Below, in pieces: positions 3,006 to 20,648 of a stretch of 64,000 bases of DNA. The notes below the pieces were generated by a model, which was not told the origin of the DNA, did no database searches, and saw only the letters and a list, made by a program, of their open reading frames with translations. Source of the DNA: Phycisphaerae bacterium (lineage in GTDB: Bacteria; Planctomycetota; Phycisphaerae; Sedimentisphaerales; UBA12454); assembly GCA_041478555.1 (NCBI GenBank), contig JBGOWI010000009.1, forward strand, positions 3,875 through 67,874, given 5' to 3'. The position numbers and the translations under genes were made by a program. Every line of letters starts with the position of its first letter. Within the stretch, counting starts at the first letter, position 1.

Positions 3006-4229
3006 ATGGTAAAGCAATTTATCGCCGGCAGTTGCTATTCGTATATTCTAATCTCAAATAATGAAGCGCTAATTATCGACCCCCATATAAGTTTAGTAGA
3101 AGAATATAGAAAATATCTAACGAAAAATAAATTTACAGCAAAGTTCATAGTCGATACACATACGCATGCCGACCATTTTTCCGCTGCTGCGGTGTTAAAG
3201 AAACAGCTTAAAGCCCCGGTTCTGATGCACGAAAAAGCCATATCCGGCGTCGCAGACAAGCGGCTTAAAGATAATGACCGGATAGACGCAGGCACAAGCG
3301 GCATTAAGGTCATATATTCGCCGGGCCATACGGACGATGCTATAAGCTTATACGGAGAAGGCAGATTGTTTTCAGCCGATGTGCTCTTAATCGGCAGCGT
3401 CGGCAGAACAGATTTTCAAAATGGTTCGCCTGAATCGATGTTCGATACCCTGCAAAAATTAAAACGTCTGCCTGATGATACTATATTGTGCCCGGGACAC
3501 GATTATCACAGTCAGCGTTCATCAGCCATAGGCAGAGAGAAGAAAAATAATCCCTTCCTGAAGGAAGAAAATAAAGAAAATTTCGTGAAGAATATGCGGT
3601 CGAAAGTTATTCCCAAGCCCTTTAATATAGATAATATTATTCGGGTAAACCAGAAAGGCGAGGCAACATCGATAGAGATGATTTCGCCGTCCGATGCGGC
3701 ATCGGTTTTAAAACAAGACCAGCAAACGAAGATTCTGGATGTGCGCTCCGCTCTGGAGTTTAGTCAAATGCATATAGAAAATTCCATTAATATCCCCATA
3801 GATATGATTTCGGCAAAAATAGGCGAATTGAGTCGCTCGAAACAAAACTATCTGGTTCTCTGTCACAGCGGAACACGCGCCGCTATGGCGGCGGATATGC
3901 TGATGCAATCCGGGATTCATACGGCAAAGGTAATCCAGGGCGGCATCGCACGCTGGCAAAAAGAAAAACTGTCGGTTATTAAAGGCCAGGGCGGAATATC
4001 GCTGGAACGTCAGGTCCGGCTTGCGGCAGGGAGTCTTGTGCTTGCCGGAATAATAATGGGCTGGCTGCTGCACTGGACTTTTATATTTGTTTCGGTTTTT
4101 GTCGGCAGCGGTCTTGTTTTTTCAGGACTTTCCGATAGTTGCCTTATGGGAATGCTGCTGATGAAACTGCCGTATAATAAAAAACTTTATAAAAGCAAAT
4201 TGGGCGGAGGAACGTGCTCCATTAGTTAA
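3006..4229 (+). CDS. MBL-fold hydrolase (persulfide dioxygenase-like) fused to a rhodanese domain and a DUF2892-like membrane tail
   Basis: HTHADH metal motif and GHTDD. Rhodanese active-site loop LVLCHSGTRAAMAA. Hydrophobic C-terminal segment LAAGSLVLAGIIMGWLLHWTFIFVSVFVGSGLVFSGLSDSC (YgaP-like). ATG at 3006 is preceded by GGGAAAGAGG. The ORF track start (2988) is a TTG further upstream. Confidence 0.8.
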   Translation: MVKQFIAGSCYSYILISNNEALIIDPHISLVEEYRKYLTKNKFTAKFIVDTHTHADHFSAAAVLKKQLKAPVLMHEKAISGVADKRLKDNDRIDAGTSGIKVIYSPGHTDDAISLYGEGRLFSADVLLIGSVGRTDFQNGSPESMFDTLQKLKRLPDDTILCPGHDYHSQRSSAIGREKKNNPFLKEENKENFVKNMRSKVIPKPFNIDNIIRVNQKGEATSIEMISPSDAASVLKQDQQTKILDVRSALEFSQMHIENSINIPIDMISAKIGELSRSKQNYLVLCHSGTRAAMAADMLMQSGIHTAKVIQGGIARWQKEKLSVIKGQGGISLERQVRLAAGSLVLAGIIMGWLLHWTFIFVSVFVGSGLVFSGLSDSCLMGMLLMKLPYNKKLYKSKLGGGTCSIS

Positions 4230-4252
4230 AAACCGTACTTCTCAATTTTCCC

Positions 4253-4301
4253 TGCCCCGTGAGATGTTTACCCCGTGGGATGTGAAACTATCTCATCGGG
4301 G
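4253..4301 (+). repeat. REP-like bulged hairpin, copy 1 (left arm duplicated)
   Basis: TGCCCCGTGAGATGtttaCCCCGTGGGATGtgaaactATCTCATCGGGG. Same family as 4344-4377 and, reverse-complemented, 10654-10690. Confidence 0.7.
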
Positions 4302-4343
4302 TTAATCCGTGTCTAAAAAAATCTCTGTGTTCTCGGTGAACCT

Positions 4344-4377
4344 TGCCCCGTGAGATGCCGCTGCTATCTCATCGGGG
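4344..4377 (+). repeat. REP-like bulged hairpin, copy 2
   Basis: TGCCCCGTGAGATGccgctgctATCTCATCGGGG. The stems CCCCG/CGGGG and TGAGAT/ATCTCA are separated by one conserved bulged T in the 3' arm. Confidence 0.7.
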
Positions 4378-4664
4378 TCTGTGGCCAAAAATATACTTTT
4401 TATATCCTCTGTGGCTTCAATCTTTTTCAAAATGCGCATAAAAAAACATGCGCGTTTTGGAAAAAATAAAAAATTTTTCTCCATATCTGACAAGCACTTA
4501 CAAGATCGGGGTGATAAATTTTTGCTCAAAATTCGTCAAAAACGCGCAAGTTTTTGGGTAATACGGCAGGACTATATGTCCTCCAGGATACAAAAAAAAG
4601 AACCGCGGATTTCACTGATTTCGCTGATTTCAATTTTATCAAATCCGTTTAATCCGTGTAATCG

Positions 4665-5405
4665 GTGGTTAAAATTGTGCCAAAGACTTATTTACATATC
4701 CCTGTTCCTGACTCTATTGTACGCCTCGGCGTTGCCATTGTGCTGCGCCACAGGAAAAAACACTACGGCTGCGCATTCAGGCGCATTAAACTTACAAAAG
4801 GCCGATATGCCATTGTTGACCCTGAAGATTATCAGAAATTATCACAAGATGATTGGCAGCTTTTTGAGACTGAAAATAAGAAGTGTTACGCTGCCAGAAT
4901 CGAGGGAATAAAAATCGAATATATGCATAGGCAGATTATGAACGCCCCTAAAGGCTCTATCGTTGACCATAGAGACCACGAAGGGCTTAATAACACCAGG
5001 GATAATTTGCGATTCGCGACGCGTTCTCAAAACAGCTGTAATAGAAAGCGATTAAATTATGGCAGCTCGAAATACAGGGGCGTCTGCCGGGGAAATGAAT
5101 GCAATAAATGGCGAGCATATATTAGTTTTAACGGGCAGCGAAAATATTTAGGTTATTTCGAAAATGAGGAGGATGCCGCAAAAGCGTATGACGAAGCAGC
5201 GAAAATATACCACGGCGAGTTTGCTGTCTTGAATTTTGAATCCACAGAGCCTGGAGCGACAGCGACAGGAGAATTTAAAAGCGATAGCGCAGGGAGCAAA
5301 CAAAACCTCGGAAGCAGAATCAAATTACGCCTACTTGACGGTGCAATTCTGTGTTGTATAATTTTACTCTTATGTATTTTTGCGGGAAAACAAGCGGAGA
5401 CTGAT
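4665..5405 (+). CDS. HNH endonuclease + AP2 DNA-binding domain ORF (no stop codon of its own; reads in frame into the ABC ATPase gene)
   Basis: KGRYAIVDPEDYQKLSQDDWQL..., then the HNH_3-like region YMHRQIMNAPKGSIVDHRDHEGLNNTRDNLRFATRSQN, then the AP2-like region SKYRGVCRGNECNKWRAYISFNGQRKYLGYFENEEDAAKAYDEAAKIYHGEFAVLNF. The ORF track shows one uninterrupted frame 4665..6125. The start codon is uncertain. Confidence 0.7.
5335..5362 (+). promoter_or_regulatory. Sigma70-like promoter candidate for the ABC operon, inside the tail of the HNH/AP2 reading frame
   Basis: TTGACG (5335-5340), 16 nt spacer, TATAAT (5357-5362), 44 nt upstream of ATG 5406. Confidence 0.4.
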
Positions 5406-6125
5406 ATGATAAAAATAAATGAGTTGCGAAAGAGGTTCGGGCCGATTGTCGCTGTTGACGGCGTGTCATTCGAAGTAGAAAAAGGACAAGTACTCGGATT
5501 CCTCGGACCCAACGGGGCAGGCAAGAGCACCGTTATGAGAATGCTGGCGTGCTTCCTGCGGCCTGACAGCGGGACGGCACAAATCTGCGGATTCGATATT
5601 CTCAAAAATCCTGTTCAGGTCAGGCAAAATATAGGATACTTAGCTGAGAATGTGCCGGCCTACAACGAAATGACCGTAGGAGCATTTTTAGACTTTATCT
5701 GCGATGCAAGGGGACTTGACAGCAAAAAACGAAAAGAGTCGCTCGATAAAATCGTCTCAATGTGCCATATCGAATCGGTATTTCATCAGACAATAGAAAC
5801 GCTGTCCAAAGGCTACAAAAGAAGAGTCGGACTTGCTCAGGCACTTATACACGACCCGCCGGTGCTTATTCTCGATGAGCCGACAGATGGACTTGACCCG
5901 AACCAAAAACACGAAGTGCGCCAACTCATCAGCAAAATGGCAAAGGATAAATGCATCGTTGTATCCACACATATACTCGAAGAAGTCGAAGCGGTATGCA
6001 GCAGGGCAATAGTAATCGCACGCGGGAAAATTCTCGTGGATTCAACGCCCCAGGGGCTTAAAACCGAGTATAACTGCACGCTCGATGAGGTGTTCAGGAA
6101 AATAACTACAAGCAAAGTAGCGTAG
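5406..6125 (+). CDS. ABC transporter ATP-binding protein (ABC-2/GldA-like)
   Basis: MIKINELRKRFGPIVAVDGVSFEVEKGQVLGFLGPNGAGKST (Walker A), LSKGYKRRVGLAQAL (signature), LILDEPTDGLD (Walker B). The internal ATG at 5406 gives the canonical N-terminus. Confidence 0.9.
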   Translation: MIKINELRKRFGPIVAVDGVSFEVEKGQVLGFLGPNGAGKSTVMRMLACFLRPDSGTAQICGFDILKNPVQVRQNIGYLAENVPAYNEMTVGAFLDFICDARGLDSKKRKESLDKIVSMCHIESVFHQTIETLSKGYKRRVGLAQALIHDPPVLILDEPTDGLDPNQKHEVRQLISKMAKDKCIVVSTHILEEVEAVCSRAIVIARGKILVDSTPQGLKTEYNCTLDEVFRKITTSKVA

Positions 6126-6130
6126 AAGGG

Positions 6131-6205
6131 AAAAATCCGAAATCCGAACCCCGCCTTGGCGGGACAGGTATCGAAATCCGAAACAAATTCAAAATGCAAA
6201 AACCT
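6131..6205. repeat. Intergenic low-complexity repeat (AAATCCGAAATCCGAA ... CGAAATCCGAAAC) with a small CCCCGCC-ttg-GCGGG hairpin
   Basis: The word GAAATCCGAAAC recurs reverse-complemented at 26621-26646 (GAATTTCGTGTTTCGGATTTC). It sits between the ATPase and permease genes of one operon. Confidence 0.5.
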
Positions 6206-6248
6206 AAATTTTTAAAACGAATATCATAAAATAAAAGGGAAAAAGAAA

Positions 6249-6980
6249 ATGAAGGGTTTTTGGGCTGTTTTTAAAAGAGAGTTTAAATCGTACTTTACTA
6301 CGCCGCTGGCGTATGTGTTTCTTGTGGTGTTCCTGTTCTTCTCGGGGTATCTGACATTTAAGCAGGGATTCTTCGAGGCGAGGCAGGCGGATATGACGGC
6401 GTTCTTTGTGAATATGCCGCTGCTGTTTGTGTTCCTTGTGCCGGCGGCGGCGATGAGGCTCTGGGCTGAAGAGCGAAAAACAGGCTCAATCGAACTGTTG
6501 TTTACGCTGCCGATTACTGTAAAACAAGCGGTGCTGGGGAAATTTTTCGCTGCGTGGGTGTTTATCATCGTCGCAATGGCCCTGACATTTCCAATGGCAA
6601 TAACGGTCTGCTACTTAGGCAGGCCGGATGCGGGACTGATACTGGCAGGGTATCTGGCGAGCATTCTTATGGCAGGGGGGTTTCTTGCGGTCGGATGCTT
6701 CTTTTCGGCGATAAGCAATAATCAGGTTATCAGTTTTGTGCTGTCGGTCGTTGCGTGCGCGATACTTGTCTTTGCAGGGATGCCGACAACGATGAGCTAT
6801 CTGTCAACGTTTCTGCCGGCAGGACTTGTTGAGAGTATAAGCACGATGAGCTTTCAGGGACATTTCGAGTCGATGCAGAAAGGCGTGCTCGAACTGGCGG
6901 ATGTAACTTATTTTGTCATTCTTATTGCAGGATGGATTGCAGCGTGCGGAATAGTTCTTGATGAAAGGAAGGCAGGCTGA
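6249..6980 (+). CDS. ABC-2 type transporter permease (GldF-like)
   Basis: 243 aa with six predicted hydrophobic helices. The N-terminus MKGFWAVFKREFKSYFTTPLAYVFLVVF is typical of ABC-2/GldF permeases. Operon context supports the call. Confidence 0.85.
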   Translation: MKGFWAVFKREFKSYFTTPLAYVFLVVFLFFSGYLTFKQGFFEARQADMTAFFVNMPLLFVFLVPAAAMRLWAEERKTGSIELLFTLPITVKQAVLGKFFAAWVFIIVAMALTFPMAITVCYLGRPDAGLILAGYLASILMAGGFLAVGCFFSAISNNQVISFVLSVVACAILVFAGMPTTMSYLSTFLPAGLVESISTMSFQGHFESMQKGVLELADVTYFVILIAGWIAACGIVLDERKAG

Positions 6981-6981
6981 T

Positions 6982-7248
6982 GAATCCCGCACCTTCTAAA
7001 TATTCAATGTATCCCGCCTCAAAGCATTGGAGCGGGATGTATCACGTATATTTTTTGAAGAGTCGAAAGAGTAATAGCTTGTCGATTGGATATACCAAAG
7101 GTTTAAAAAAGATTGAACCCCGCACCTTTTGCACCGTACTAAAACCAAAAAAGAGTCGATTCAAAAGGCGCCTGACTCAAATGACTCTAATGCCGGATAA
7201 CACAGTACAAAAGGTGCGGGATGAACCGAAAGAAGGTGCGGGATGAAC
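6982..7248. mobile_element. Nested composite of CCCGCACC-family MITE-like elements filling the permease/GldG-like junction
   Basis: The outer copy (GAATCCCGCACCTTCT ... AGAAGGTGCGGGATGAAC) aligns with the 20476-20593 copy. The inner copy, 7119-7220 (102 bp), is bounded by CCCGCACCTTTT / AAAAGGTGCGGG. An extra hairpin, ATCCCGCCtcaaagcattggaGCGGGAT (about 7011-7038), is flanked by GTAT on both sides. Confidence 0.75.
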
Positions 7249-9222
7249 AGAACCTTCAGGATAATCGCAGGCGTGATATTCGTTTTGATTATCACTTTCA
7301 GCGTTATCAGCATAAGTCAGAATATCGGCAAAGGTTTGAAAATCGACGTAACCGAACAGAGACTTTATACGCTAAGCAGCGGCACAAAGGCAATTCTTGC
7401 CAAACTCAACCAGCCGATAACGATGAAACTTTACTATGCCAAGACGGCGGCGCTCAAGGGGCCGGACCAGATTCGATATTTTAATAATTATTATGAGTTT
7501 GTAAAATCGCTGCTCGAAGAATATGTCGCTGCCTCCGGCGGTATGGTTAAACTTGAAGTTATCGACCCGCGGCCTTATTCGGACGAGGAAGTTGCGGCCT
7601 TGAGATACGGGCTGAGACGATTTCCCATTACCGAAGAGGAAAATTTCTTCTTCGGACTCGTCGTGCAGACGCAGTTCGGGGTCGAAAAGACAATTCCGGT
7701 TTTTTCGCCAAATCGTCAAAACTTTGTCGAATATGACATAAGCTATCTGATTGATACGGCGATAACACGACAAAAGAAACGGGTAGGCATATTAAGTTCG
7801 CTGGATATGCTGGGCGATGAGGTAAGCCCCTATATGGCCAGACTGATGCAGCTACAGGGGCAGCAGCCTCGCCAGGCGTGGGCGTTTGTCGAGCACCTTA
7901 AACAGCAGTATGAAGTAAAAGGTATTCCAACAGATGTCAATAAAATAGAAGACGTGGATATTCTGCTGGTTATTCACCCGAAGGATTTTTCCGAGCAAAC
8001 GCTGTTTGCAATCGACCAGTTTGTTGTCAGCGGCGGCAGAACAATTGTCTGTATTGACCCGTACTGTATCAATGACCTGCCGCGGCAGCCGGCAATGCAG
8101 ATGCGGACCGAACATAATCCAAGCTCCGAACTGAACAGGCTGCTGGCCAACTGGGGACTGGAAATGCCGAAAGATACATTCGCAGGCGACAGGTCGCTTG
8201 CACTGGCCGCTGCACTCAGGGCAGATGAAAGGCCGCAGAAGATAATCGGTTTTTTAGGGCTGACGCCGGAATGCTTCAATCACGATAATGTCATAACAGC
8301 CGAGCTGAACCAGGTGAGCTTTCTGTTCAGCGGCGTTTTGCGCGAAGTTATGCTCGACGAGCAGGAGATTAAGGAAAGAAATATTCAGCGAACACCTCTT
8401 ATTATGACAACAACAAAAGGAAACAGCTGGACGGTCGATAATCAGGTCGAACTTATGGTGCTCGATACTGAAAGCCTTATGGAAAAGTTCACCGACGGCG
8501 CAGAGCCGGTTAAGATGGCCTATCTGGTTACCGGCAGATTCAAAAGCGATTTTCCGGAAGGCGTCGATATTGAAGTTGATGCGCCGGCAGATGCCAACGA
8601 ACCGAATGCACCGCCGAAAAAAATCAAAGAGCATATCGCAGGCCTGGCGGAGGCGAAGGATAATTGTGCCGTGGTTGTTTTTGCTGATGTTGACTTTTTA
8701 AGCGATATGATTGCTTACAGAAATACGTTTTTCGGCACACTCATCATCGGAGATAACAGCGCTCTGGCAATGAACGCTATCGACGAGCTGTGCGGGTCAA
8801 ACGAACTGATTTCAATAAGGTCCCGCGGCAATTTCAAAAGACCTTTTGAGGTTGTTGACAAAATCGAAGAGCAGGCAGAGGCCCAGACCGCCGACCAGGA
8901 GGCAAAAATCAACGCTGAAATCACGAGATTTGAGAATGAACTGCGGTCGATTCTTGCCTCGGCAAAACAGGGCGAAGAAGAGATTATCGGCAGCTCCATC
9001 CTGCAGAAGAAAAACGAGCTTGAACTGAAAATTCATCAGGCGAAAAAGCAGCTCCAGGAGATAAAAAAGACAAGACTCCAGCGAAAGGAAAACCTCGGGA
9101 ACAGCCTGCGGGATTTCAATATGCTGGCGGCACCGGCAGCAATTCTGGTTATCGCTATAATTCTCGGCGTCCATAGAAGCGTAAAGAAAAGACGATATAT
9201 CAGTCATGCGAGCGATGCGTAA
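7243..9222 (+). CDS. GldG-like auxiliary component of ABC-type transport system
   Basis: 659 aa with an N-terminal TM (IIAGVIFVLIITFSVISI) and a C-terminal TM (LAAPAAILVIAIILGV). The QRLYTLSSGTKAIL...PITMKLYY pattern matches GldG-family proteins. It follows the ABC-2 ATPase and permease. Confidence 0.8.
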   Translation: MNRTFRIIAGVIFVLIITFSVISISQNIGKGLKIDVTEQRLYTLSSGTKAILAKLNQPITMKLYYAKTAALKGPDQIRYFNNYYEFVKSLLEEYVAASGGMVKLEVIDPRPYSDEEVAALRYGLRRFPITEEENFFFGLVVQTQFGVEKTIPVFSPNRQNFVEYDISYLIDTAITRQKKRVGILSSLDMLGDEVSPYMARLMQLQGQQPRQAWAFVEHLKQQYEVKGIPTDVNKIEDVDILLVIHPKDFSEQTLFAIDQFVVSGGRTIVCIDPYCINDLPRQPAMQMRTEHNPSSELNRLLANWGLEMPKDTFAGDRSLALAAALRADERPQKIIGFLGLTPECFNHDNVITAELNQVSFLFSGVLREVMLDEQEIKERNIQRTPLIMTTTKGNSWTVDNQVELMVLDTESLMEKFTDGAEPVKMAYLVTGRFKSDFPEGVDIEVDAPADANEPNAPPKKIKEHIAGLAEAKDNCAVVVFADVDFLSDMIAYRNTFFGTLIIGDNSALAMNAIDELCGSNELISIRSRGNFKRPFEVVDKIEEQAEAQTADQEAKINAEITRFENELRSILASAKQGEEEIIGSSILQKKNELELKIHQAKKQLQEIKKTRLQRKENLGNSLRDFNMLAAPAAILVIAIILGVHRSVKKRRYISHASDA

Positions 9223-9267
9223 TAATTTAAAATTTAAAATTTAATATTTAAAATTTTTATGAGGCAA

Positions 9268-9400
9268 GGGTCAGGTAGTGGGTTAGGTATGGCGTAAGCC
9301 ATCCCCAAGGGAGTGGGGTTAAGCAGTGAGTCCCGATTTTATCGGGATGACCACACTACCCACAACTCACAACTTAACACACTACTTTACCCCATCCTCT
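9268..9400 (+). repeat. Long imperfect palindrome: GT-rich arm, perfect central hairpin, CA-rich arm
   Basis: The arm GGGTCAGGTAGTGGGTTAGG...GGAGTGGGGTTAAGCAGTGAG is followed by TCCCGAT-ttt-ATCGGGA (9331-9347) and then the arm CCACACTACCCACAACTCACAACTTAACACACTACTTTACCCCATCC. Complementary words include GGTAGTG/CACTACC and GTGAG/CTCAC. Confidence 0.5.
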
Positions 9401-9490
9401 CAACAAAACGGTACAGCATCGCAACCGATAAACGATATACAATGCTTAATCAAAACTTGCTTTAGTAGAAATAAATATTGGAGTTGCCAG

Positions 9491-10642
9491 ATGAGCGATA
9501 AAAAACTTTCGTTTTTAGGTATTCTTGCGATAGTGTCAGTTATTGCTGCTGTTTTTGTTTCGCAGTTTGCAAACAGGACAAAAACGACCTCGGCGGGGTC
9601 AGGTAATCTTATTCAGGGACTTGACCCGGCAGCTATTGCCGAAATTGTAATGGGCATTCGCCGCGGTGCGACCGCGTCGCAACGAGAAGGCAATGAACCC
9701 CGCCGCAACGAGCTGCGGGATGAACAGATAAATCTTGCGCGAAGAGGCGGCGGCTTTGTTGTTGCAAACAAAAGTTATTATCCTGCCTCAAACAGGGCGG
9801 TTAACGACCTGCTGGCTGCCTGTTTCGATATCAGGACCGTTGAGCTTTATACCGAAGATAAAGCCAATCATAAAGACCTCGGTGTTAGCGAAGAAGATGC
9901 AAGAGATATCGTTAAATTTCTTGATTCGAACGGAAAGGTCATCACAGCCGTTGTCATCGGAAATCTGCGCGAAGACGGCAGCATGGCTTACGCCAGACTC
10001 ATCAACGATGACAAGGTCTATATTATTTACAATACGCCGTGGATAAGACAATCGCCGCTCGATTATGTCGAACAAGAGCTTATATCGGTAGATAAGGCCA
10101 ATATAGACGCCGTAACCATTACATCGCCAAACGAGGTTTATACCCTGATTTCCGAAGCCAACGGCACCGAAGTTGTACTGCAACAACTGCCTGTCGGCAA
10201 AAAAGAGAAAAAAAATGATTGCGCCGCGGTTTTCGGCGCACTTACCAACCTGAGATTCGATGATGTGAATGCCGCGGCAGATGAATCAGGCTTGAATTTC
10301 GACCGAAAATATACCTGTCTGCTGAAGGATTCGACCTTGTATACCATCCAGATAGCACAAAGAGATTCAAAAACATTTATAAAATGCTCTGCTGAGTTTA
10401 CCGATAAGACGCCTGTGAAGAAAGAAGAAGCCGTAGAGTCGCAGGAAGAACTCAAAAAGAAGGAAGCCAAACTGCTGGCAAAAGAAAAGGCGAAAAAGTT
10501 TCAGGAAACCTGCGACGGCTGGGTTTACCAGATACCCGAATACAAGGCGAAAAATATGACGAGGCTGATGGCAGAACTGATTGAGGATATTCCGCCGCAA
10601 AAGCCAGCCGAGGCGAATGAACCAAAGGAAGTAAAGAAGTAA
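9491..10642 (+). CDS. DUF4340-like protein (fourth gene of the GldG-type ABC operon), N-terminal membrane anchor
   Basis: ATG 9491 gives MSDKKLSFLGILAIVSVIAAVFVSQF (basic n-region plus TM). The pattern ...FVVANKSYYPASNRAVNDLL... is typical of DUF4340 proteins found after GldG homologues. The ORF track extension to 9326 runs through a palindromic repeat and is unlikely to be coding. Confidence 0.7.
   Translation: MSDKKLSFLGILAIVSVIAAVFVSQFANRTKTTSAGSGNLIQGLDPAAIAEIVMGIRRGATASQREGNEPRRNELRDEQINLARRGGGFVVANKSYYPASNRAVNDLLAACFDIRTVELYTEDKANHKDLGVSEEDARDIVKFLDSNGKVITAVVIGNLREDGSMAYARLINDDKVYIIYNTPWIRQSPLDYVEQELISVDKANIDAVTITSPNEVYTLISEANGTEVVLQQLPVGKKEKKNDCAAVFGALTNLRFDDVNAAADESGLNFDRKYTCLLKDSTLYTIQIAQRDSKTFIKCSAEFTDKTPVKKEEAVESQEELKKKEAKLLAKEKAKKFQETCDGWVYQIPEYKAKNMTRLMAELIEDIPPQKPAEANEPKEVKK
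9655..9726. repeat. Composite GC-rich repeat inserted in frame in the DUF4340-like CDS
   Basis: TTCGCCGCGGTGCGACCGCGTCGCAACG equals the joined, reverse-complemented ends of the 349-439 element. It is followed by ATGAACCCCGCcgcaacgagctGCGGGATGAAC, a CCCGC-family hairpin flanked by direct ATGAAC. It is translated as IRRGATASQREGNEPRRNELRDE. Confidence 0.6.
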
Positions 10643-10653
10643 GGAACGTCGAA

Positions 10654-10690
10654 CCCCGATGAGATAGCCGAAACGTCATCTCACGGGGCA
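10654..10690 (-). repeat. REP-like bulged hairpin, copy 3 (inverted orientation)
   Basis: CCCCGATGAGATagccgaaacgtcATCTCACGGGGCA is the reverse complement of the TGCCCCGTGAGATG...ATCTCATCGGGG family seen at 4253-4377. A degenerate partial copy (GAACGTCCAATGATGAG) lies at about 10735-10751. Confidence 0.7.
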
Positions 10691-10831: not shown

Positions 10832-11233
10832 TTATGGATGCGGGGGAGCCTGGGCCAAGATAAAAGGCAAAGAGGCTTTCTGCTGGCCGTCAATTGCCAA
10901 ATCAATCCTGTATTTGCCGTAGTTTTGCAACTTGAGTCCCTGAAGATTAGCGACGACATTAACGACAGTTGAATCGGATTTGGCCGGGGCCCTTACCGAA
11001 ATTGTTCCCTCTAATTTAGGAAAAACTTCTGCACCATCTTCATCAATGACGCAAATTCTGAACGGGTGCTGACCTTCTTCAATTCTGGAGAACCTTATCC
11101 TGAGTGCAACGGCGCAGGCCGGATGCGTAGTAGGAACCTGCCTGGCAAGAATAGTGTCGAAAGCACCCAAAACATTTAATTTGCCGTTCTGGTCGGTCGC
11201 AGCATCGCATAATAAAAAAGCTTCAATATCCAT
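10832..11233 (-). CDS. Hypothetical protein (small beta-rich protein, no recognisable catalytic motif)
   Basis: 133-aa ORF with no competing ORF. It begins MDIEAFLLCDAATDQNGKLNVLGAFDTI. The composition is coding-like. Function is unknown. Confidence 0.6.
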   Translation of the reverse strand: MDIEAFLLCDAATDQNGKLNVLGAFDTILARQVPTTHPACAVALRIRFSRIEEGQHPFRICVIDEDGAEVFPKLEGTISVRAPAKSDSTVVNVVANLQGLKLQNYGKYRIDLAIDGQQKASLPFILAQAPPHP

Positions 11234-11367: not shown

Positions 11368-11943
11368 TTAGAGAGTTCTTGCCAATTCAGGATTATTTAA
11401 AGCTGTCGTCAGGTCGATATAGCGATAGGGGAAATTGAATTTTTCGCACAGTAACTTGAATTTTTCGACAGCTTCTTCGCTGAGTTTGTTTTGCAAATCT
11501 TTATCGGCTTTGCAGAAGAATATTCTGCAGCCTGCGAAACGATAATTTCTTACGCTGCATTTACCCCCACACCAATTTGCACCTCGATGAGGTGTTTTGA
11601 AAGCCAACCCAATTGGTTTTAAGTGTTCTTTTAAGCTTATCCGCCGCAATGTAAATTGGTGTGGGGGTGTACCATTTTCGAGATAAGGACAACAGGAGCC
11701 GGTCATTTTTCTTAATAGTTTAACATTTTCATAAAAGTATAACAGTTCTGGCGTTGTTGCAAAAAGTTTGTGGCCGAACGATTCAAAGCGGCAGCACTTT
11801 CCGCAGGCTGTACACTGATTGTTGAATGGTTCTATATTGGAGTCCAGCCAGTCGTATATTCGCTCAACTTCGCTGCATATCTGAAGGTTGTTTTGCATCA
11901 AGCCACCAGCGTTTTTGTTTTTTGATTTTCTGGATTTCATCAT
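11368..11943 (-). CDS. YkgJ-family Cys-cluster (zinc/iron-chelating, UPF0153) protein, copy 2, with in-frame repeat insertion
   Basis: CTACGKCCRFESFGHKLF (CxxCxxCC motif) and ...SCCPYLENG[insert]KCSVRNYRFAGCRIFFC. The start is uncertain (ATG 11943 or ATG 11898). Either start overlaps the upstream paralogue. Confidence 0.7.
   Translation of the reverse strand: MMKSRKSKNKNAGGLMQNNLQICSEVERIYDWLDSNIEPFNNQCTACGKCCRFESFGHKLFATTPELLYFYENVKLLRKMTGSCCPYLENGTPPHQFTLRRISLKEHLKPIGLAFKTPHRGANWCGGKCSVRNYRFAGCRIFFCKADKDLQNKLSEEAVEKFKLLCEKFNFPYRYIDLTTALNNPELARTL
11564..11667. mobile_element. CCCCACACCAATTT-family palindromic element inside YkgJ copy 2
   Basis: CCCCCACACCAATTTGCA ... TGTAAATTGGTGTGGGGG. 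It measures 102 bp between 4-C and 4-G runs and 104 bp with the 5-nt runs. The same TIRs occur at 15316-15417. Confidence 0.75.
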
Positions 11944-12445
11944 AAGTATAGAGCCTGCCTTTGTTTATACCGGGACATTTCATCGCAGCGGCATTCCAGT
12001 CATCCGGGTTGTTTAGATTGTTCGGCCAGAAAGGCCAGTTTCGGCACTGCATTGGACGAGCGTCATAAATCGCGCAGCCTTTAACCCCGCACCTATTGTT
12101 CTGTGTTTTAGCAAAATCAAAATCGCTTCGCTTGACATTTGTTGAATCGATTTTCTCTTGGTTTGGGTTTGGCACAATAGGTGCGGGATTTATATTCTTA
12201 AGAAAAACACAATCCTTAGAACAGGGATTTTCCCTTATCGAGAAGCTAAGCCTGAGTCTTTTAAGGAATTTTTTTCGCACATCGTTCGGGCTTTGGCTCA
12301 GATGCTTTGCAAGTATTTTGATTTCCTGTCTCGATATCCATATAACGCCCTCCTGCGGGCCGGAGCAGCAATTTCCGCACTGCTGGCAGGCAAAATGCAA
12401 ACCTCCAATGTACCAGGGCGTATTTGTTTTTTTGTCAACTACCAT
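11864..12445 (-). CDS. YkgJ-family Cys-cluster (UPF0153) protein, copy 1, with in-frame repeat insertion
   Basis: [24 protein letters not shown] (CxxCxxCC motif) and ...CVFLKNI[insert][20 protein letters not shown]. The start overlaps the ilvD stop by 7 nt. Confidence 0.75.
12086..12187. mobile_element. CCCGCACC-family palindromic element inside YkgJ copy 1
   Basis: CCCGCACCTATTG ... CAATAGGTGCGGG, 102 bp by hand count. It is translated (minus strand) as [34 protein letters not shown]. Confidence 0.75.
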
Positions 12446-15295: not shown

Positions 15296-16399
15296 ATGAA
15301 AAACCGGATTTTTATCCCCACACCAATTTGCATTGACCAGGAGAATTTTAAATTCGCCAGCAAGGCTGTTTCTGCTCAGCCTTTATTTGCCCGACCACAG
15401 TACAAATTGGTGTGGGGATTTACGATTGCGTTTGTGCTTTTCTTTGTCGGCTGTCAGGGGCAGCAGAAGTCGGGTGGTTTTAAAGGCAATCTGCTTTTAA
15501 GCGTCGATTTTAAACCTGATGTGCCATTGAAGTATAATTTTGTCTGTGAGAGACAGATAGCCCTTGACCTTGACCCATCGCACAAATACTCGAAAGGAGA
15601 AAAAGGCAGAGGCGGCAGCCAGAATATGGCTGAAAAACTCGAGATGGAAATTGTCTATAAGCCTGTCGAGATTGACCCTTACGGCTATTCAACAATCGAG
15701 GCAACCTGCAATTCGGCCAAAGTTACGCGCACCGCGGTAAGCAGCAGAGGGCAGGCAAAAGGCGATGCGGTTGAGTCTGCTGTCGGCAAAAGCTTTACAC
15801 TCAAGATTACGCCGACAGGCAAAATCATCGATTATACATCTCTTGAAAGTCTGGTCAAGGAGCTCGGCAACAGGGCCTTTGCAGATTCAAGCAGAGGCAG
15901 AATCAAAGACTCCGATATGATTATGGATTTTCTTGCCACACAGTGGTATATCTGGGATTTAATATCGAGTATAAAAGAGCCATTGAAAGGTGTTAAGAAA
16001 GGCCAGAAATGGAGCTCGCAGCTTCTGGCGCCGATGCCTTTCGTCTCAAAGGTCGGCAGAGATGTGGAGTACGAATTTGCAGGTGTTATTGAAGAGGGCG
16101 GCGTTTCTCTTGCCGAGATAACAAGCAGTTATAAATTGAGTAAGTTGCTGCCGGCGGCGCCTCTTCCTTACAGCGGTTCGTTTCAGATGAGGGGCACATT
16201 CGGCTTTTTAAGAGGATATAAGGTGCTGAGCATCGAAGGCAGCGGACGAGAGCTTTATGATATAGAAAGAGGAATTATTAAAAGTGATATTCAGCAGTAT
16301 CAGGCCAAGGTCGGTGCCTCCATTTTCGGTCTCGGCAGCGATACAATTGAGCCGAATATAGAAATCAACCAGACTATAACAATGACTTTGGCTGAATAA
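15296..16399 (+). CDS. Hypothetical lipoprotein with a palindromic element inserted in the signal peptide region
   Basis: The frame is open from ATG 15296 (MKNRIFI...) through the 102-bp element to GFTIAFVLFFVGCQG (lipobox FVGC). It is a paralogue of 14298..15257. The true start is uncertain; internal TTG/GTG codons at 15407/15410 are possible. Confidence 0.7.
   Translation: MKNRIFIPTPICIDQENFKFASKAVSAQPLFARPQYKLVWGFTIAFVLFFVGCQGQQKSGGFKGNLLLSVDFKPDVPLKYNFVCERQIALDLDPSHKYSKGEKGRGGSQNMAEKLEMEIVYKPVEIDPYGYSTIEATCNSAKVTRTAVSSRGQAKGDAVESAVGKSFTLKITPTGKIIDYTSLESLVKELGNRAFADSSRGRIKDSDMIMDFLATQWYIWDLISSIKEPLKGVKKGQKWSSQLLAPMPFVSKVGRDVEYEFAGVIEEGGVSLAEITSSYKLSKLLPAAPLPYSGSFQMRGTFGFLRGYKVLSIEGSGRELYDIERGIIKSDIQQYQAKVGASIFGLGSDTIEPNIEINQTITMTLAE
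15316..15417. mobile_element. CCCCACACCAATTT-family palindromic element inside the lipoprotein signal-peptide coding region
   Basis: CCCCACACCAATTTGCATTG ... GTACAAATTGGTGTGGGG, exactly 102 bp by hand count. It has the same orientation relative to its host gene as the 11564-11667 copy. Confidence 0.75.
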
Positions 16400-16421: not shown

Positions 16422-16931
16422 TTGAAAAGGAACAATCTCTGGGCGCCATGGAGGATTGGATATATTCAGGGCCTTGGCAAAAAACATGATTGTTTTATCT
16501 GCCATAATGTAAAGCATCCGCAGCAGGATGAGGAAAATTTCGTGCTGTGGCGCACGAAAAACTGCCTTGTCATGCTCAACAAGTTTCCATACAACAACGG
16601 CCATCTGCTTTTAGCCTCCATCAGGCATGTCGCCGGCCTCGATGAACTCGACGACGGTGAAATGCTGGAACTTGCAAAACTTATTATTGCCTCGCAGAAG
16701 GTTTTGACACTGGCGATAAAGCCGCACGGCTTTAATATCGGGACGAACTTCGGCAGATGTGCCGGGGCGGGCCTGCCCGACCATTTGCATATCCATATAG
16801 TGCCGCGATGGGACGGCGATACCAACTTTATGGATGTCTGCGCCGATACGGATGTTATAAGCCAGTCAATGAAAGATTTGTATAAACAGCTAAAGGCCGC
16901 AAGTGCTGAAAATAATCTGCCCGGTCTTTAG
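16422..16931 (+). CDS. HIT family protein (AP4A phosphorylase/ATP adenylyltransferase-like)
   Basis: LWAPWRIGYIQG N-terminus and histidine triad HLHIHIVPRW. TTG start. Confidence 0.85.
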   Translation: MKRNNLWAPWRIGYIQGLGKKHDCFICHNVKHPQQDEENFVLWRTKNCLVMLNKFPYNNGHLLLASIRHVAGLDELDDGEMLELAKLIIASQKVLTLAIKPHGFNIGTNFGRCAGAGLPDHLHIHIVPRWDGDTNFMDVCADTDVISQSMKDLYKQLKAASAENNLPGL

Positions 16932-16940
16932 TATAAAGTT

Positions 16941-17180
16941 AACAGTGAACAGTTTACAGTTTACAGAAAAATATGGAAGAGATGGATTTTAAATTTGATT
17001 TTGAGAAACTCAAGGTTTATCAGAAAGCGCTCGATTTTATCCACGAGATTTTTAAAATATATAAACGATTACCACGAGAGTATAAATATACCGTCGGCGG
17101 CAAAGAAATAACTAATATGTTTTTTGGATTGATAGAGTCGCTGGAATAATGCTGTAAACTGTACACTGTAAACAGTAAAC
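16941..17180. mobile_element. Inverted-repeat-flanked cassette carrying a truncated four-helix-bundle ORF
   Basis: The left flank is AACAGTGAACAGTTTACAGTTTACAG (16941-16966). The right flank is GCTGTAAACTGTACACTGTAAACAGTAAAC (17151-17180). The arms are reverse complements of each other (CAGTGAACAGTTTACAG versus CAGTGTACAGTTTACAG). Confidence 0.55.
16973..17149 (+). pseudogene. Truncated four-helix-bundle protein (23S rRNA intervening-sequence protein family) remnant, 58 codons
   Basis: Hand translation gives MEEMDFKFDFEKLKVYQKALDFIHEIFKIYKRLPREYKYTVGGKEITNMFFGLIESLE*. The N-terminal FEKLKVYQKAxDFxxEIxKIxKxxPxE pattern and the C-terminal xxMLxGLIxSL pattern match the family. The central ~60 residues of full-length members are missing. 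It falls below the ORF-track length cutoff. Confidence 0.55.
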
Positions 17181-17185
17181 TAAAA

Positions 17186-18293: not shown

Positions 18294-18334
18294 GGAAGAG
18301 AATATCAAATATTGAATTATGAAGTAAAAAATGT

Positions 18335-18363
18335 CCCGCACCTAAAGTTATTTAGGGTGCGGG
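18335..18363. repeat. Minimal CCCGCACC-family hairpin
   Basis: CCCGCACCTAaagttatttAGGGTGCGGG, in the convergent gap between dgt and the MFS gene. Confidence 0.55.
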
Positions 18364-18502
18364 ATTCGACTCCTGTTAATTATCACTGCTGCCGTTCTTC
18401 AGGTTCGATTTTCAAATCGGCAAAATAAGTAACACTGTCGGCTTTTGTCCAGAAGCCGACATTTCCTTTCAAAAATATGGTTGACTTGGCGGCTGGCTGA
18501 AA

Positions 18503-20469: not shown

Positions 20470-20475
20470 GTGATT

Positions 20476-20593
20476 GAATCCCACACCTTCTAAATATTCA
20501 ATATATCACGTATATCTTTTGAAGAGTCGAAAGGATAATAGAATTATAACAGGTTTAAAGAAAATTGGACAGAAAAGAAGGTGCGGGATTGAA
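20476..20593. mobile_element. CCCGCACC-family MITE-like element (simple, un-nested copy)
   Basis: GAATCCCACACCTTCTAAATATTCAAT...TTTTGAAGAGTCGAAAGGATAATAG...AGAAGGTGCGGGATTGAA. It measures 108 bp from CCCACACC to GGTGCGGG and is flanked on both sides by ATTGAA. It is collinear with the outer copy at 6982-7248. Confidence 0.75.
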
Positions 20594-20648
20594 AATTCGC
20601 CTCTTACAAAGTATCATTTCATAAATTTTTAAACTATCAAGGGATTTT

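Follow-up and report, generated by a model that had tools for sequence, protein, structure and literature searches.

The free-standing homing endonuclease genes of T4-like phages, the GIY-YIG genes of the seg type and the HNH genes of the mob type, are selfish nuclease genes that lie between conserved, co-directional genes. Several of them overlap the open reading frame (ORF) upstream, and the AUG of mobE is placed on the stop codon of nrdA as UAAUGA, which has been read as translational coupling (PMC2988022). A likewise placed insert was found in a 64,000-nt stretch of DNA from a Phycisphaerae bacterium of the Sedimentisphaerales (assembly GCA_041478555.1, contig JBGOWI010000009.1, positions 3,875 to 67,874 of the forward strand; the whole stretch is hereafter called the window), where an element of 259 nt (6985-7243) separates the genes of an ABC-2 family permease and a GldG-like protein and carries an 88-codon ORF. 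This 263-bp insert is probably a decayed ~300-bp GIY-YIG mini-element, the ORF of which most likely still acts as a ribosome bridge between its two neighbours. Seg proteins have the same GIY-YIG catalytic fold as the element. In contrast to it, however, they possess DNA-binding domains, and their spread from one homologous genome to another proceeds by double-strand-break repair, without terminal inverted repeats (TIRs) or target duplication. The element, on the other hand, encodes a bare domain of ~85-100 aa, has 13-bp TIRs within its coding ends, duplicates TGAA, occurs at unrelated loci of bacterial chromosomes and is accompanied by non-autonomous hairpin derivatives. Thus the position between conserved host genes was found as for free-standing homing endonucleases, while a DNA-binding domain and a spread free of TIRs and target-site duplications (TSDs) were not.

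Small palindromic repeats which keep a frame open and are translated with it are represented by the Rickettsia palindromic elements (RPEs) and other frame-carrying transposable elements of the miniature inverted-repeat type (MITEs) (PMC10969869). RPEs insert inside host genes and join the host protein, whereas the present insert is intergenic, has an ORF of its own with overlaps at both ends, and is nuclease-derived. The bacterial MITEs Chunjie, Correia/NEMIS and ERIC have TIRs, a short TSD, a length of <300 bp, deletion series and co-transcribed RNA hairpins (PMC10969869). They lie inside transcription units, like the present element, but are non-coding, derive from insertion sequences with DDE transposases, and exert their effects through transcription, RNase III or IHF. 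The REP/REPIN sequences and their RAYTs resemble the element in having a nuclease gene of single-copy type with inverted palindromes on both sides, in their many short hairpin derivatives with shared termini, and in that subfamilies have different palindromes. RAYTs are HUH Y1 enzymes, however, and REPINs are extragenic and without target duplication; the element differs from them by its GIY-YIG enzyme, its 4-nt duplication and its coding repeats. Readings of the insert as a REP/RAYT, IS200/IS605-like or integron attC sequence were dropped for the target duplications and the GIY-YIG ORF.

The closest relatives in both sequence and structure are the prokaryotic Slx1-like/UPF0213 (YhbQ-type) proteins, which consist of a minimal stand-alone GIY-YIG domain. 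A 2006 survey of the GIY-YIG superfamily found the minimal bacterial Slx1-like proteins to be mostly vertically inherited and predicted a role in repair (PMC1564403); TIRs, target duplications and insertion at start codons are unreported for them. In the full-text literature covered, which lay outside subscription journals, no bacterial GIY-YIG element with inverted repeats and target duplication was described, and no paper linked MITEs to translational coupling. This kind of element is thus apparently undescribed so far.

Anatomy of the insert and its relation to GIY-YIG genes

The host operon has the order ABC ATPase, permease, GldG-like protein, DUF4340, and the insert occupies the junction of its second and third genes. 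The features at the junction are as follows.

6249 to 6980, + strand: ABC-2 family permease gene, 243 aa, stop TGA at 6978-6980; Pfam ABC2_membrane_2/4/5
6980 to 7246, + strand: bridging ORF, ATG start, 88 codons; GIY-YIG ORF remnant with two in-frame nested inserts
6981 to 6984, + strand: left TSD copy TGAA, the TG of which forms the bridging ORF ATG with the A of the permease stop
6985 to 7243, + strand: outer element, 259 nt, an internally deleted, TIR-bounded GIY-YIG mini-element by homology, with orthologous copies in L002, L003 and L164
6985 to 6997, + strand: left TIR TCCCGCACCTTCT, reverse complement of 7231-7243, encoding (N)PAPS
7012 to 7037, + strand: mini hairpin of 26 nt, TCCCGCC...GGAGCGGGA, with TSD TGTA at 7008-7011 and 7038-7041
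7118 to 7221, + strand: inner element of 104 nt, CCCCGCACC...GGTGCGGGA, with TSD TGAA at 7114-7117 and 7222-7225
7231 to 7243, + strand: right TIR AGAAGGTGCGGGA, encoding KEGAG and including the Shine-Dalgarno (SD)-like AGAAGG; its final A is the A of the GldG-like ATG
7244 to 7247, + strand: right TSD copy TGAA, supplying the bridging ORF stop TGA and the TG of the GldG-like start
7243 to 9222, + strand: GldG-like gene, 659 aa; Pfam DUF7088 and ABC_transp_aux

The ATG of the bridging ORF (6980-6982) shares base 6980 with the permease stop (TGATG at 6978-6982), and its stop, TGA at 7244-7246, overlaps the GldG-like ATG at 7243-7245 (ATGA at 7243-7246). The 88-codon frame at 6980-7246 with a stop/start overlap at each end was therefore present as an earlier sequence-only reading had described it. 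Both flanking genes keep their ends: the permease C-terminus ...ERKAG* is retained in orthologues, and the GldG-like N-terminus MNRT... begins at ATG 7243 in every close orthologue. The TIRs of the outer element are perfect over 13 bp and the inner and mini elements have the same termini, while the TSDs of the outer element (TGAA), the inner element (TGAA) and the mini hairpin (TGTA) were confirmed by empty sites, as in MITEs. The three levels of nesting noticed earlier each have an empty-site counterpart elsewhere, and the outer copy, noted as collinear with 20476-20593, was found collinear with 20475-20589 at 90-92% identity in matching blocks. Some details changed, however. The inner copy is real but measures 104 nt at 7118-7221, not 102 bp at 7119-7220; the CCCGCC hairpin of ~30 bp is likewise real but has TGTA as its TSD, the GTAT proposed as its flank being part of ATGTAT; and the duplication of ATGAA exists but consists of TGAA plus an A of different origin on each side, the A before the left TGAA being the last base of the permease stop and the A before the right TGAA the last base of the element.

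A homology search with the 88-aa peptide led to the full-length GIY-YIG proteins P0121 and P0125 (105-106 aa), of which P0125 begins MNPAPSKYSMYHVYLLKSRKNSSLYIGYTKDMNHRLKEHN... and P0121 has the same N-terminus. Conversely, tblastn with P0121 against the window gave 75% identity over 44 aa (E=6e-17). The Pfam GIY-YIG model (PF01541) detected P0121 with E=1.3e-15 and P0125 with E=1.3e-14 (55-58 bits vs a cut-off of 22.6), and the bridging ORF of the orthologous junction L003 still matched the N-terminal motif (E=0.0014); the 88-aa ORF of the window had no significant match in Pfam or NCBIfam. The latter ORF keeps the first ~30 residues (MNPAPS, YHVY.LKS, IGYT) and the tail, so that the outer element joins the GIY-YIG N-terminal motif to the C-terminal tail and the catalytic core, R...EHN...E, is absent. 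Into this remnant the mini hairpin brings 30 nt in frame (PASKHWSGMY) and the inner element 108 nt in frame; the mini-hairpin insert is also found in frame in full-length P0121 (PDPKHWNGMY). The nearest solved structures were those of the minimal UPF0213 proteins 1ZG2 (E=1e-7) and 1YWL (E=4e-7), followed by SLX1, and in phage genomes only distant matches to the core domain were obtained, with identities of <=42%. Judged by this homology, the outer "MITE" is an internally deleted GIY-YIG gene. The earlier view of the insert as AT-rich repeat DNA, with an open frame that needs an explanation of its own, thus had to be given up. The G+C content of the region is 42% against 45.5% in the window, so that it is only mildly AT-rich. 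Other GIY-YIG genes in the fetched loci (L002 7343-7657, L063, L097 and L109) were considered and set aside, as these TIRs are missing from them and they represent other subfamilies.

No stop interrupts the bridging frame, against 2-7 in each of the other five frames. On shuffling (20,000 trials), the 87 interior codons stayed open in 0.29% of mononucleotide and 0.47% of dinucleotide shuffles, with an analytical value of 0.39%. The shuffling that the sequence-only reading had proposed thus agreed with its claim that the open frame is unlikely by chance, at a probability of ~0.3-0.5%.

Empty sites and alleles of the permease-GldG junction

Orthologous permease|GldG junctions were collected from 162 loci; the GTDB representatives do not include the species of the window, and the best match reached 87%. 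No record identical to the GldG-like protein of the window was found. A 1-nt overlap of the form GGCT(G/A)ATGAAC (= TGATGAAC) was the commonest state, being present at 91/162 junctions, and the close relatives L165 and L087 (84%) have the empty junction GGCTGATGAAC (GGCTGA|TGAA|CAG). When the element was placed at the TGAA of the L165/L087-type sequence, both boundaries of the window were recreated exactly, and the proposal that the ancestral junction read TGATGAAC was in agreement with the comparison of relatives. The inner element has its empty site in L164 (GATTGAACAGAAAG), while in L002 and L003 a 41-nt element stands at that site, and the mini hairpin has empty counterparts in L002, L003, L164 and the 20479 copy of the window.

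The same outer element was found at the same site in L002 (GldG 88% identical), L003 (87%) and L164 (84% by BLASTP; 79% in the tblastn segment). Their bridging ORFs measure 57, 67 and 47 codons respectively, as compared with 88 in the window, and all of them run from the permease stop to ATGA, with the TGATG and ATGA overlaps at the two ends of the bridge also in L002, L003 and L164. The distances from ATG to ATG in the four alleles are 140, 170, 200 and 263 nt, all of them 2 mod 3. The alleles differ by 15 nt of retained original gene, a nested insertion of 45 nt, an indel of 3 nt, mini hairpins of 27 nt in L003 and 30 nt in the window, and 63 nt within the inner element. All six or seven indels are multiples of 3 and none has added a stop, and (1/3)^6 = 0.0014. 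From alignment A1 only the fraction of point changes that would create stops was used, as its substitution count of 60 is inflated by non-homologous inner segments that were aligned with each other. As L164 retains five more codons (DMKPRLEE) than the window, its deletion has different end points, and it is likewise in frame. The occurrence of stop-free, multiple-of-3 indels in four alleles suggests that the through-frame is still maintained, and on this comparative evidence the bridge probably preserves coupling at this locus. The idea of translational coupling across the insertion in the sequence-only reading would therefore point in the right direction; the open frame with both overlaps recurs here in three further alleles (47, 57 and 67 codons) and in a sister element at the L008 junction.

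In L001 and L084, by contrast, where GldG is 97-98% identical to that of the window and the flanks are 97-100% identical up to the junction, the insert is absent, and the junction reads AAGGCGGGATGAAC, with a 4-nt ATGA overlap. In a neighbour-joining tree both fall inside the occupied clade. If the DNA between a GCGGG at the end of the permease, such as L002 has, and the GCGGG of the right repeat is deleted, exactly the sequence of L001/L084 results. On this reconstruction, L001 and L084 have lost the element secondarily by GCGGG-mediated deletion. The junction GCGGGATGAAC was considered as the target instead, but an insertion at its TGAA cannot give GGCTGA|TGAA|T, whereas GGCTGATGAAC does so exactly. 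The import of an occupied allele into the window by recombination was also rejected, in view of the identity of its flanks to L084 and L001 up to the junction. The same junction GCGGGATGAAC occurs in two other lineages, L004/L094 and L085/L086, where it may represent footprints of past occupancy or simple 3-nt deletions.

Two further states of this junction were seen. In L097, L108, L110, L025, L113, L122 and L033 it contains inserts of 65-71 nt that are multiples of 3 and stop-free, so that the ATG at the permease stop reads into GldG and provides an N-terminal extension of ~22 residues with no separate bridge ORF. In L010, L011, L012 and L090 (P0027, P0029, P0030, P0034, P0038, P0041 and P0043) the junction is stop-free and permease and GldG form a single ORF of ~875-910 aa.

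Full-length and decayed members of the family

Full-length members were compared in alignment A2 (32 members), and termini were also counted in 92 family proteins. The full-length members have ~100 aa and most read MNPAPS...core...KEGAG*; the C-terminus (E/K)GAG was present in 48/92 and the N-terminus xNPAPS in 35/92 family proteins. The proteins are 85-110 aa long, and Pfam finds in them the catalytic domain only and no DNA-binding domain. The TIRs lie inside the coding sequence, the left repeat being NPAPS and the right repeat KEGAG. The ATG belongs to the left TGAA region, the TGA is provided by the right copy of TGAA, and the last base of the element (A or G) together with TG restores a host start that reads ATGA or GTGA. 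In longer copies that have the same TIRs and TSD, nothing but the GIY-YIG protein is encoded. Four independent full-length copies were found between co-directional operon genes:

Copy 1: between gcvPA and gcvPB
Copy 2: between an ABC ATPase and an ABC-2 permease
Copy 3: between an RND adaptor and an RND pump
Copy 4: between dCMP deaminase and NrdR

All four have the TSD TGAA and the TIR CCCCGCACCTTCT/AGAAGGTGCGGGG, and the host start is rebuilt as GTG from the last G of the element. A 4-nt overlap is present downstream in 4/4 and upstream in 3/4 of them. The full-length copy in L167 begins with the ATG of a host junction that has an ATGA overlap, and the host ATG is regenerated downstream. TIRs and a 4-nt duplication were present at every insertion examined. 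On this comparison, the ATG-to-ATGA bridge is a canonical and built-in feature of the family.

The sister element in L008 sits at the same TGAA of the permease|GldG junction, has the TIR CCCGTTAGACC/GGTCTAACGGG and forms an ATG-to-ATGA bridge of 35 codons. Remnants of the CCCGTTAGA type occupy this junction in ~13 more distant relatives, and P0346 (MNPVRD...GIY-YIG...RLRRFLSLTG*) is the full-length form of the L008/CCCGTTAGA type. Two subfamilies can be told apart, NPAPS/EGAG with CCCGCACC and NPVR/LTG with CCCGTTAG; the N- and C-terminal peptides change with the inverted repeat, which would be expected were the repeats to serve a function as part of each subfamily. Among the CCCGTTAGA-type remnants, some are in frame with GldG, and in others an internal AAGGAG and ATG now seems to serve as the GldG start. 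Remnants with ...TAAGGAG...ATGGCACAAAAGCGNCGAATTTCTAACGGG|GTGAAC, in which AAGGAG precedes an internal ATG in frame with GldG, were seen in L051, L040, L053, L107, L116, L117 and others; these seem to have been co-opted to supply GldG with a new ribosome-binding site and ten additional N-terminal residues (MAQKRRISNG). P0223 (268 aa) has a GIY-YIG domain ending ...KNGAG that reads in frame into a prepilin-like N-terminus (FTLIETIVV...), and it looks like an element that sits at the start of a pilin-type gene and has lost its stop.

Within the window CCCGCACC occurs 12 times, as compared with 1.5 expected, and the following further copies were recognised.

20474 to 20632, + strand: second decayed copy, element at ~20479-20588 flanked by TTGAA, with an open 52-codon TTG ORF
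12085 to 12188, + strand: non-coding family member of 104 nt with the same termini, an insertion polymorphism
18334 to 18364, + strand: 31-nt hairpin with family termini, no clear TSD
32436 to 32484, + strand: 49-nt family member, TSD TCAA

The second decayed copy sits between co-directional ORFs of 166 and 821 aa, and the member at 12085-12188 is absent from L084, L165 and L087 but present in L003 and L002. A decayed copy in L003 (20101-20205) lies exactly on the start of a HIT-family gene with TSD TGAA, and this site is empty in the window. A single deletion join common to the junction, 20479 and L003 20101 copies was considered and rejected, as the latter two read KDN|RIT and the junction alleles GYT|TGLKK; because the joins differ, no claim is made that the junction-type derivative has transposed. 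At 15314-15419 and 11630-11676, and also at 10650-10690, the window contains a related palindromic family with the termini ATCCCCACACCAATTTG.../...CAAATTGGTGTGGGGAT (106 nt) and another hairpin, CCCCGATGAGAT...ATCTCACGGGG; their sequences suggest further subfamilies of the same kind of element.

Bridging, rival readings and the surrounding operon

The RNA of 6960-7275 folds at -102 kcal/mol (z = -6.0), and in its 14-bp outer stem bridge codons 2-6 are paired with AGAAGG and with the AU of the GldG AUG. In the region 6700-7500, Rfam gave no match at E<=1, and consensus scans for promoters and terminators found nothing, including no T-run terminator. From these data and the family architecture the following course may be envisaged. 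An element of the family would sit at the TGAA of a host start codon (A/TGAA) and duplicate it; the left TGAA with the A before it would keep the host ATG and its ribosome-binding context for the element ORF, while the right TGAA would provide the stop TGA and, with the last base of the element, restore the host start. With start and stop both borrowed from the duplicated target, the selfish ORF would be translated by coupling from upstream and hand the ribosomes on downstream. At the present locus, the element would have entered the coupled junction GGCTGA|TGAA|CAG, an in-frame deletion (a different one in the L164 lineage) would have removed the catalytic core, and smaller non-autonomous relatives with the same termini, the 26-nt hairpin and the 104-nt element, would have nested in frame. 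Ribosomes finishing the permease at UGA would then restart on the overlapping AUG, read through the insert while melting three nested hairpins, the 14-bp outer stem included, stop at UGA and restart on the overlapping GldG-like AUG. Translation and re-initiation, selection for the bridge, and a role of the GIY-YIG protein as mobiliser are what we infer from comparative sequence data.

The reading of the ORF as a functional bridge has to be weighed against the view that the open frame is historical and now neutral, a relic of the GIY-YIG ORF in which in-frame indels arose by chance or by microhomology of codon-level repeats, with GldG translated independently from the SD-like AGAAGG of the right TIR. 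Several observations count for this view and against a maintained bridge. Much of the openness of the frame is inherited from the former gene, and not created or kept by selection, because full-length members canonically end in an ATGA placed on the host start. Frame compatibility of the mini insert could have been filtered in full-length genes, since it is in frame in P0121 too. In-frame internal deletions also occur in the 20474-20632 copy and in proteins P0207 and P0215, and the multiple-of-3 signal may thus partly be a property of the family and not of selection at the junction. The expectation that other family copies would also be open held for the further junction alleles but failed in two other decayed copies at gene starts: at an ATGA-coupled junction in L166 the ORF ends 59 nt before the host ATG and the insert is 1 mod 3, a near-identical inner element at the same position being one base shorter with the frame broken, and the copy at L003 20101-20205 carries three stops. 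Hosts thus tolerate a broken bridge, which may be due to the AGAAGG of the right TIR, 6 nt upstream of the start and resembling the native GGAAGG at empty sites; coupling may therefore not be essential. The ratio of non-synonymous to synonymous polymorphism (pN/pS) on the remnant, 0.2-0.6, comes from 2-5 changes per class and is uninformative. The preference for start codons is partly one of ascertainment, as MNPAPS proteins need an ATG there by definition, and the non-coding members of the family have TCAA, TTTA or TGTA as their sites, at a distance from starts. Furthermore, no genome was found with several identical full-length copies, so that recent autonomous mobility is only a possibility. 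Even so, a neutral relic seems to us rather unlikely. It would have to accommodate six or seven length changes that arose independently in four lineages and are without exception multiples of 3 (P ~0.001), ~60 inserted codons without a stop, and an unrelated sister element in L008 that bridges the same site too. In addition, unless ribosomes pass, both the SD-like sequence and the AUG would be shut off by the 14-bp stem. In a variant of the neutral view this last point is answered by ribosomes that end on the permease and cover the left arm of the stem, thereby freeing the right arm with no need for translation of the bridge.

A domesticated small protein with a function of its own is a highly improbable reading of the 88-aa product. 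The versions of 47, 57 and 67 aa are predicted as genes by gene callers and the point estimates of pN/pS are <1, but the latter rest on <10 changes, the 88-aa peptide lacks the catalytic core and matches nothing significantly in Pfam, and between alleles both the deletion end points and the inserted segments, which are unrelated and 9-36 residues long, vary; moreover, the ORF is entirely absent from the two strains with nearly identical GldG. We give just as little credence to an ordinary non-coding cluster of MITE- or REP-like palindromes that acts by RNA structure, as an mRNA stabiliser, attenuator or RNase site, with a coincidental ORF. The strong RNA structure (z = -6) and the short, hairpin-only family members in intergenic regions would fit such a cluster. 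However, the ORF is homologous to GIY-YIG proteins in the same frame from left TIR to right TIR, stays open by chance in only 0.3-0.5% of shuffles and is conserved in four alleles, and neither a T-run terminator nor an Rfam match was found. Effects of the RNA structure on transcript stability could nevertheless coexist with the bridge.

Beyond the bridge, it is possible, though we advance it only tentatively, that the minimal GIY-YIG protein itself mobilises a new class of mobile element, with hairpin MITEs and decayed bridge ORFs as its non-autonomous offspring. Such an element would integrate at TGAA and take its start codon and ribosome-binding site from the host gene, and the 4-nt duplication would supply its stop and the rebuilt host start, so that no polarity would arise in operons; its TIRs would be the coding ends of its sole gene and would co-evolve with the subfamilies. 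At ~300 bp it would be among the smallest autonomous elements known. To our knowledge, a GIY-YIG mechanism with TIRs and a 4-nt duplication is absent from the known prokaryotic transposase classes, and the architecture, if true, would point to possible GIY-YIG transposition or homing of this type. It would also mean that selfish DNA can inhabit operons at almost no cost by borrowing and returning a start codon, and would account both for short "hypothetical" ORFs between coupled genes in metagenome-assembled genomes of Planctomycetota and Omnitrophota and for coupled junctions being insertion hot spots. The junction alleles, with bridges of 0, 47, 57, 67 and 88 codons in near-isogenic backgrounds, offer a natural test system for termination-reinitiation coupling.

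Several other observations were made in and around the operon. At 4665-6125 of the window a GTG ORF of 486 aa combines an HNH and AP2 region with the ABC ATPase in a single stop-free frame. An HNH and AP2 region is typical of homing-endonuclease-like proteins. The same fusion is present in L003 (493 aa: HNH_3, AP2, ABC_tran), while the AP2 gene is separate in L002; the fusion may be a further case of a selfish gene placed at the start of a gene in an operon. Other selfish cargo has entered the same operon in relatives. In L002 (5466-9207), genes of restriction-modification type (HinfI and NmeDI_C domains) and a different GIY-YIG gene stand between GldG and DUF4340, L164 has an MmeI-like N6_Mtase fusion in the same operon (4134-7349), and L003 has a PDDEXK_3 gene between ATPase and permease (8572-8979). 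The spacer between GldG and DUF4340 measures ~268 nt in the window (9223-9490) vs ~20 nt in L084, and the extra DNA contains short repeats of the AAAATTT type and small hairpins (ggtatggcgtaagccatcc; gtcccgattttatcgggat). An unrelated repeat of ~110 nt (CGTTTATCGGTTGCG...CGCAACCG...TTTAACG/TTTGACG) occurs in L084 at 10290-10470 and 10960-11080, with none at these places in the window, and the CGTTTATCGGTTGCG...CGCAACCG repeat is also found at the permease|GldG junction of L135. Finally, at 16927-17184 the window contains inverted repeats of 30-33 nt (TTTAGTATAAAGTTAACAGTGAACAGTTTACAG and its reverse complement) that are 85% complementary and 192 nt apart.

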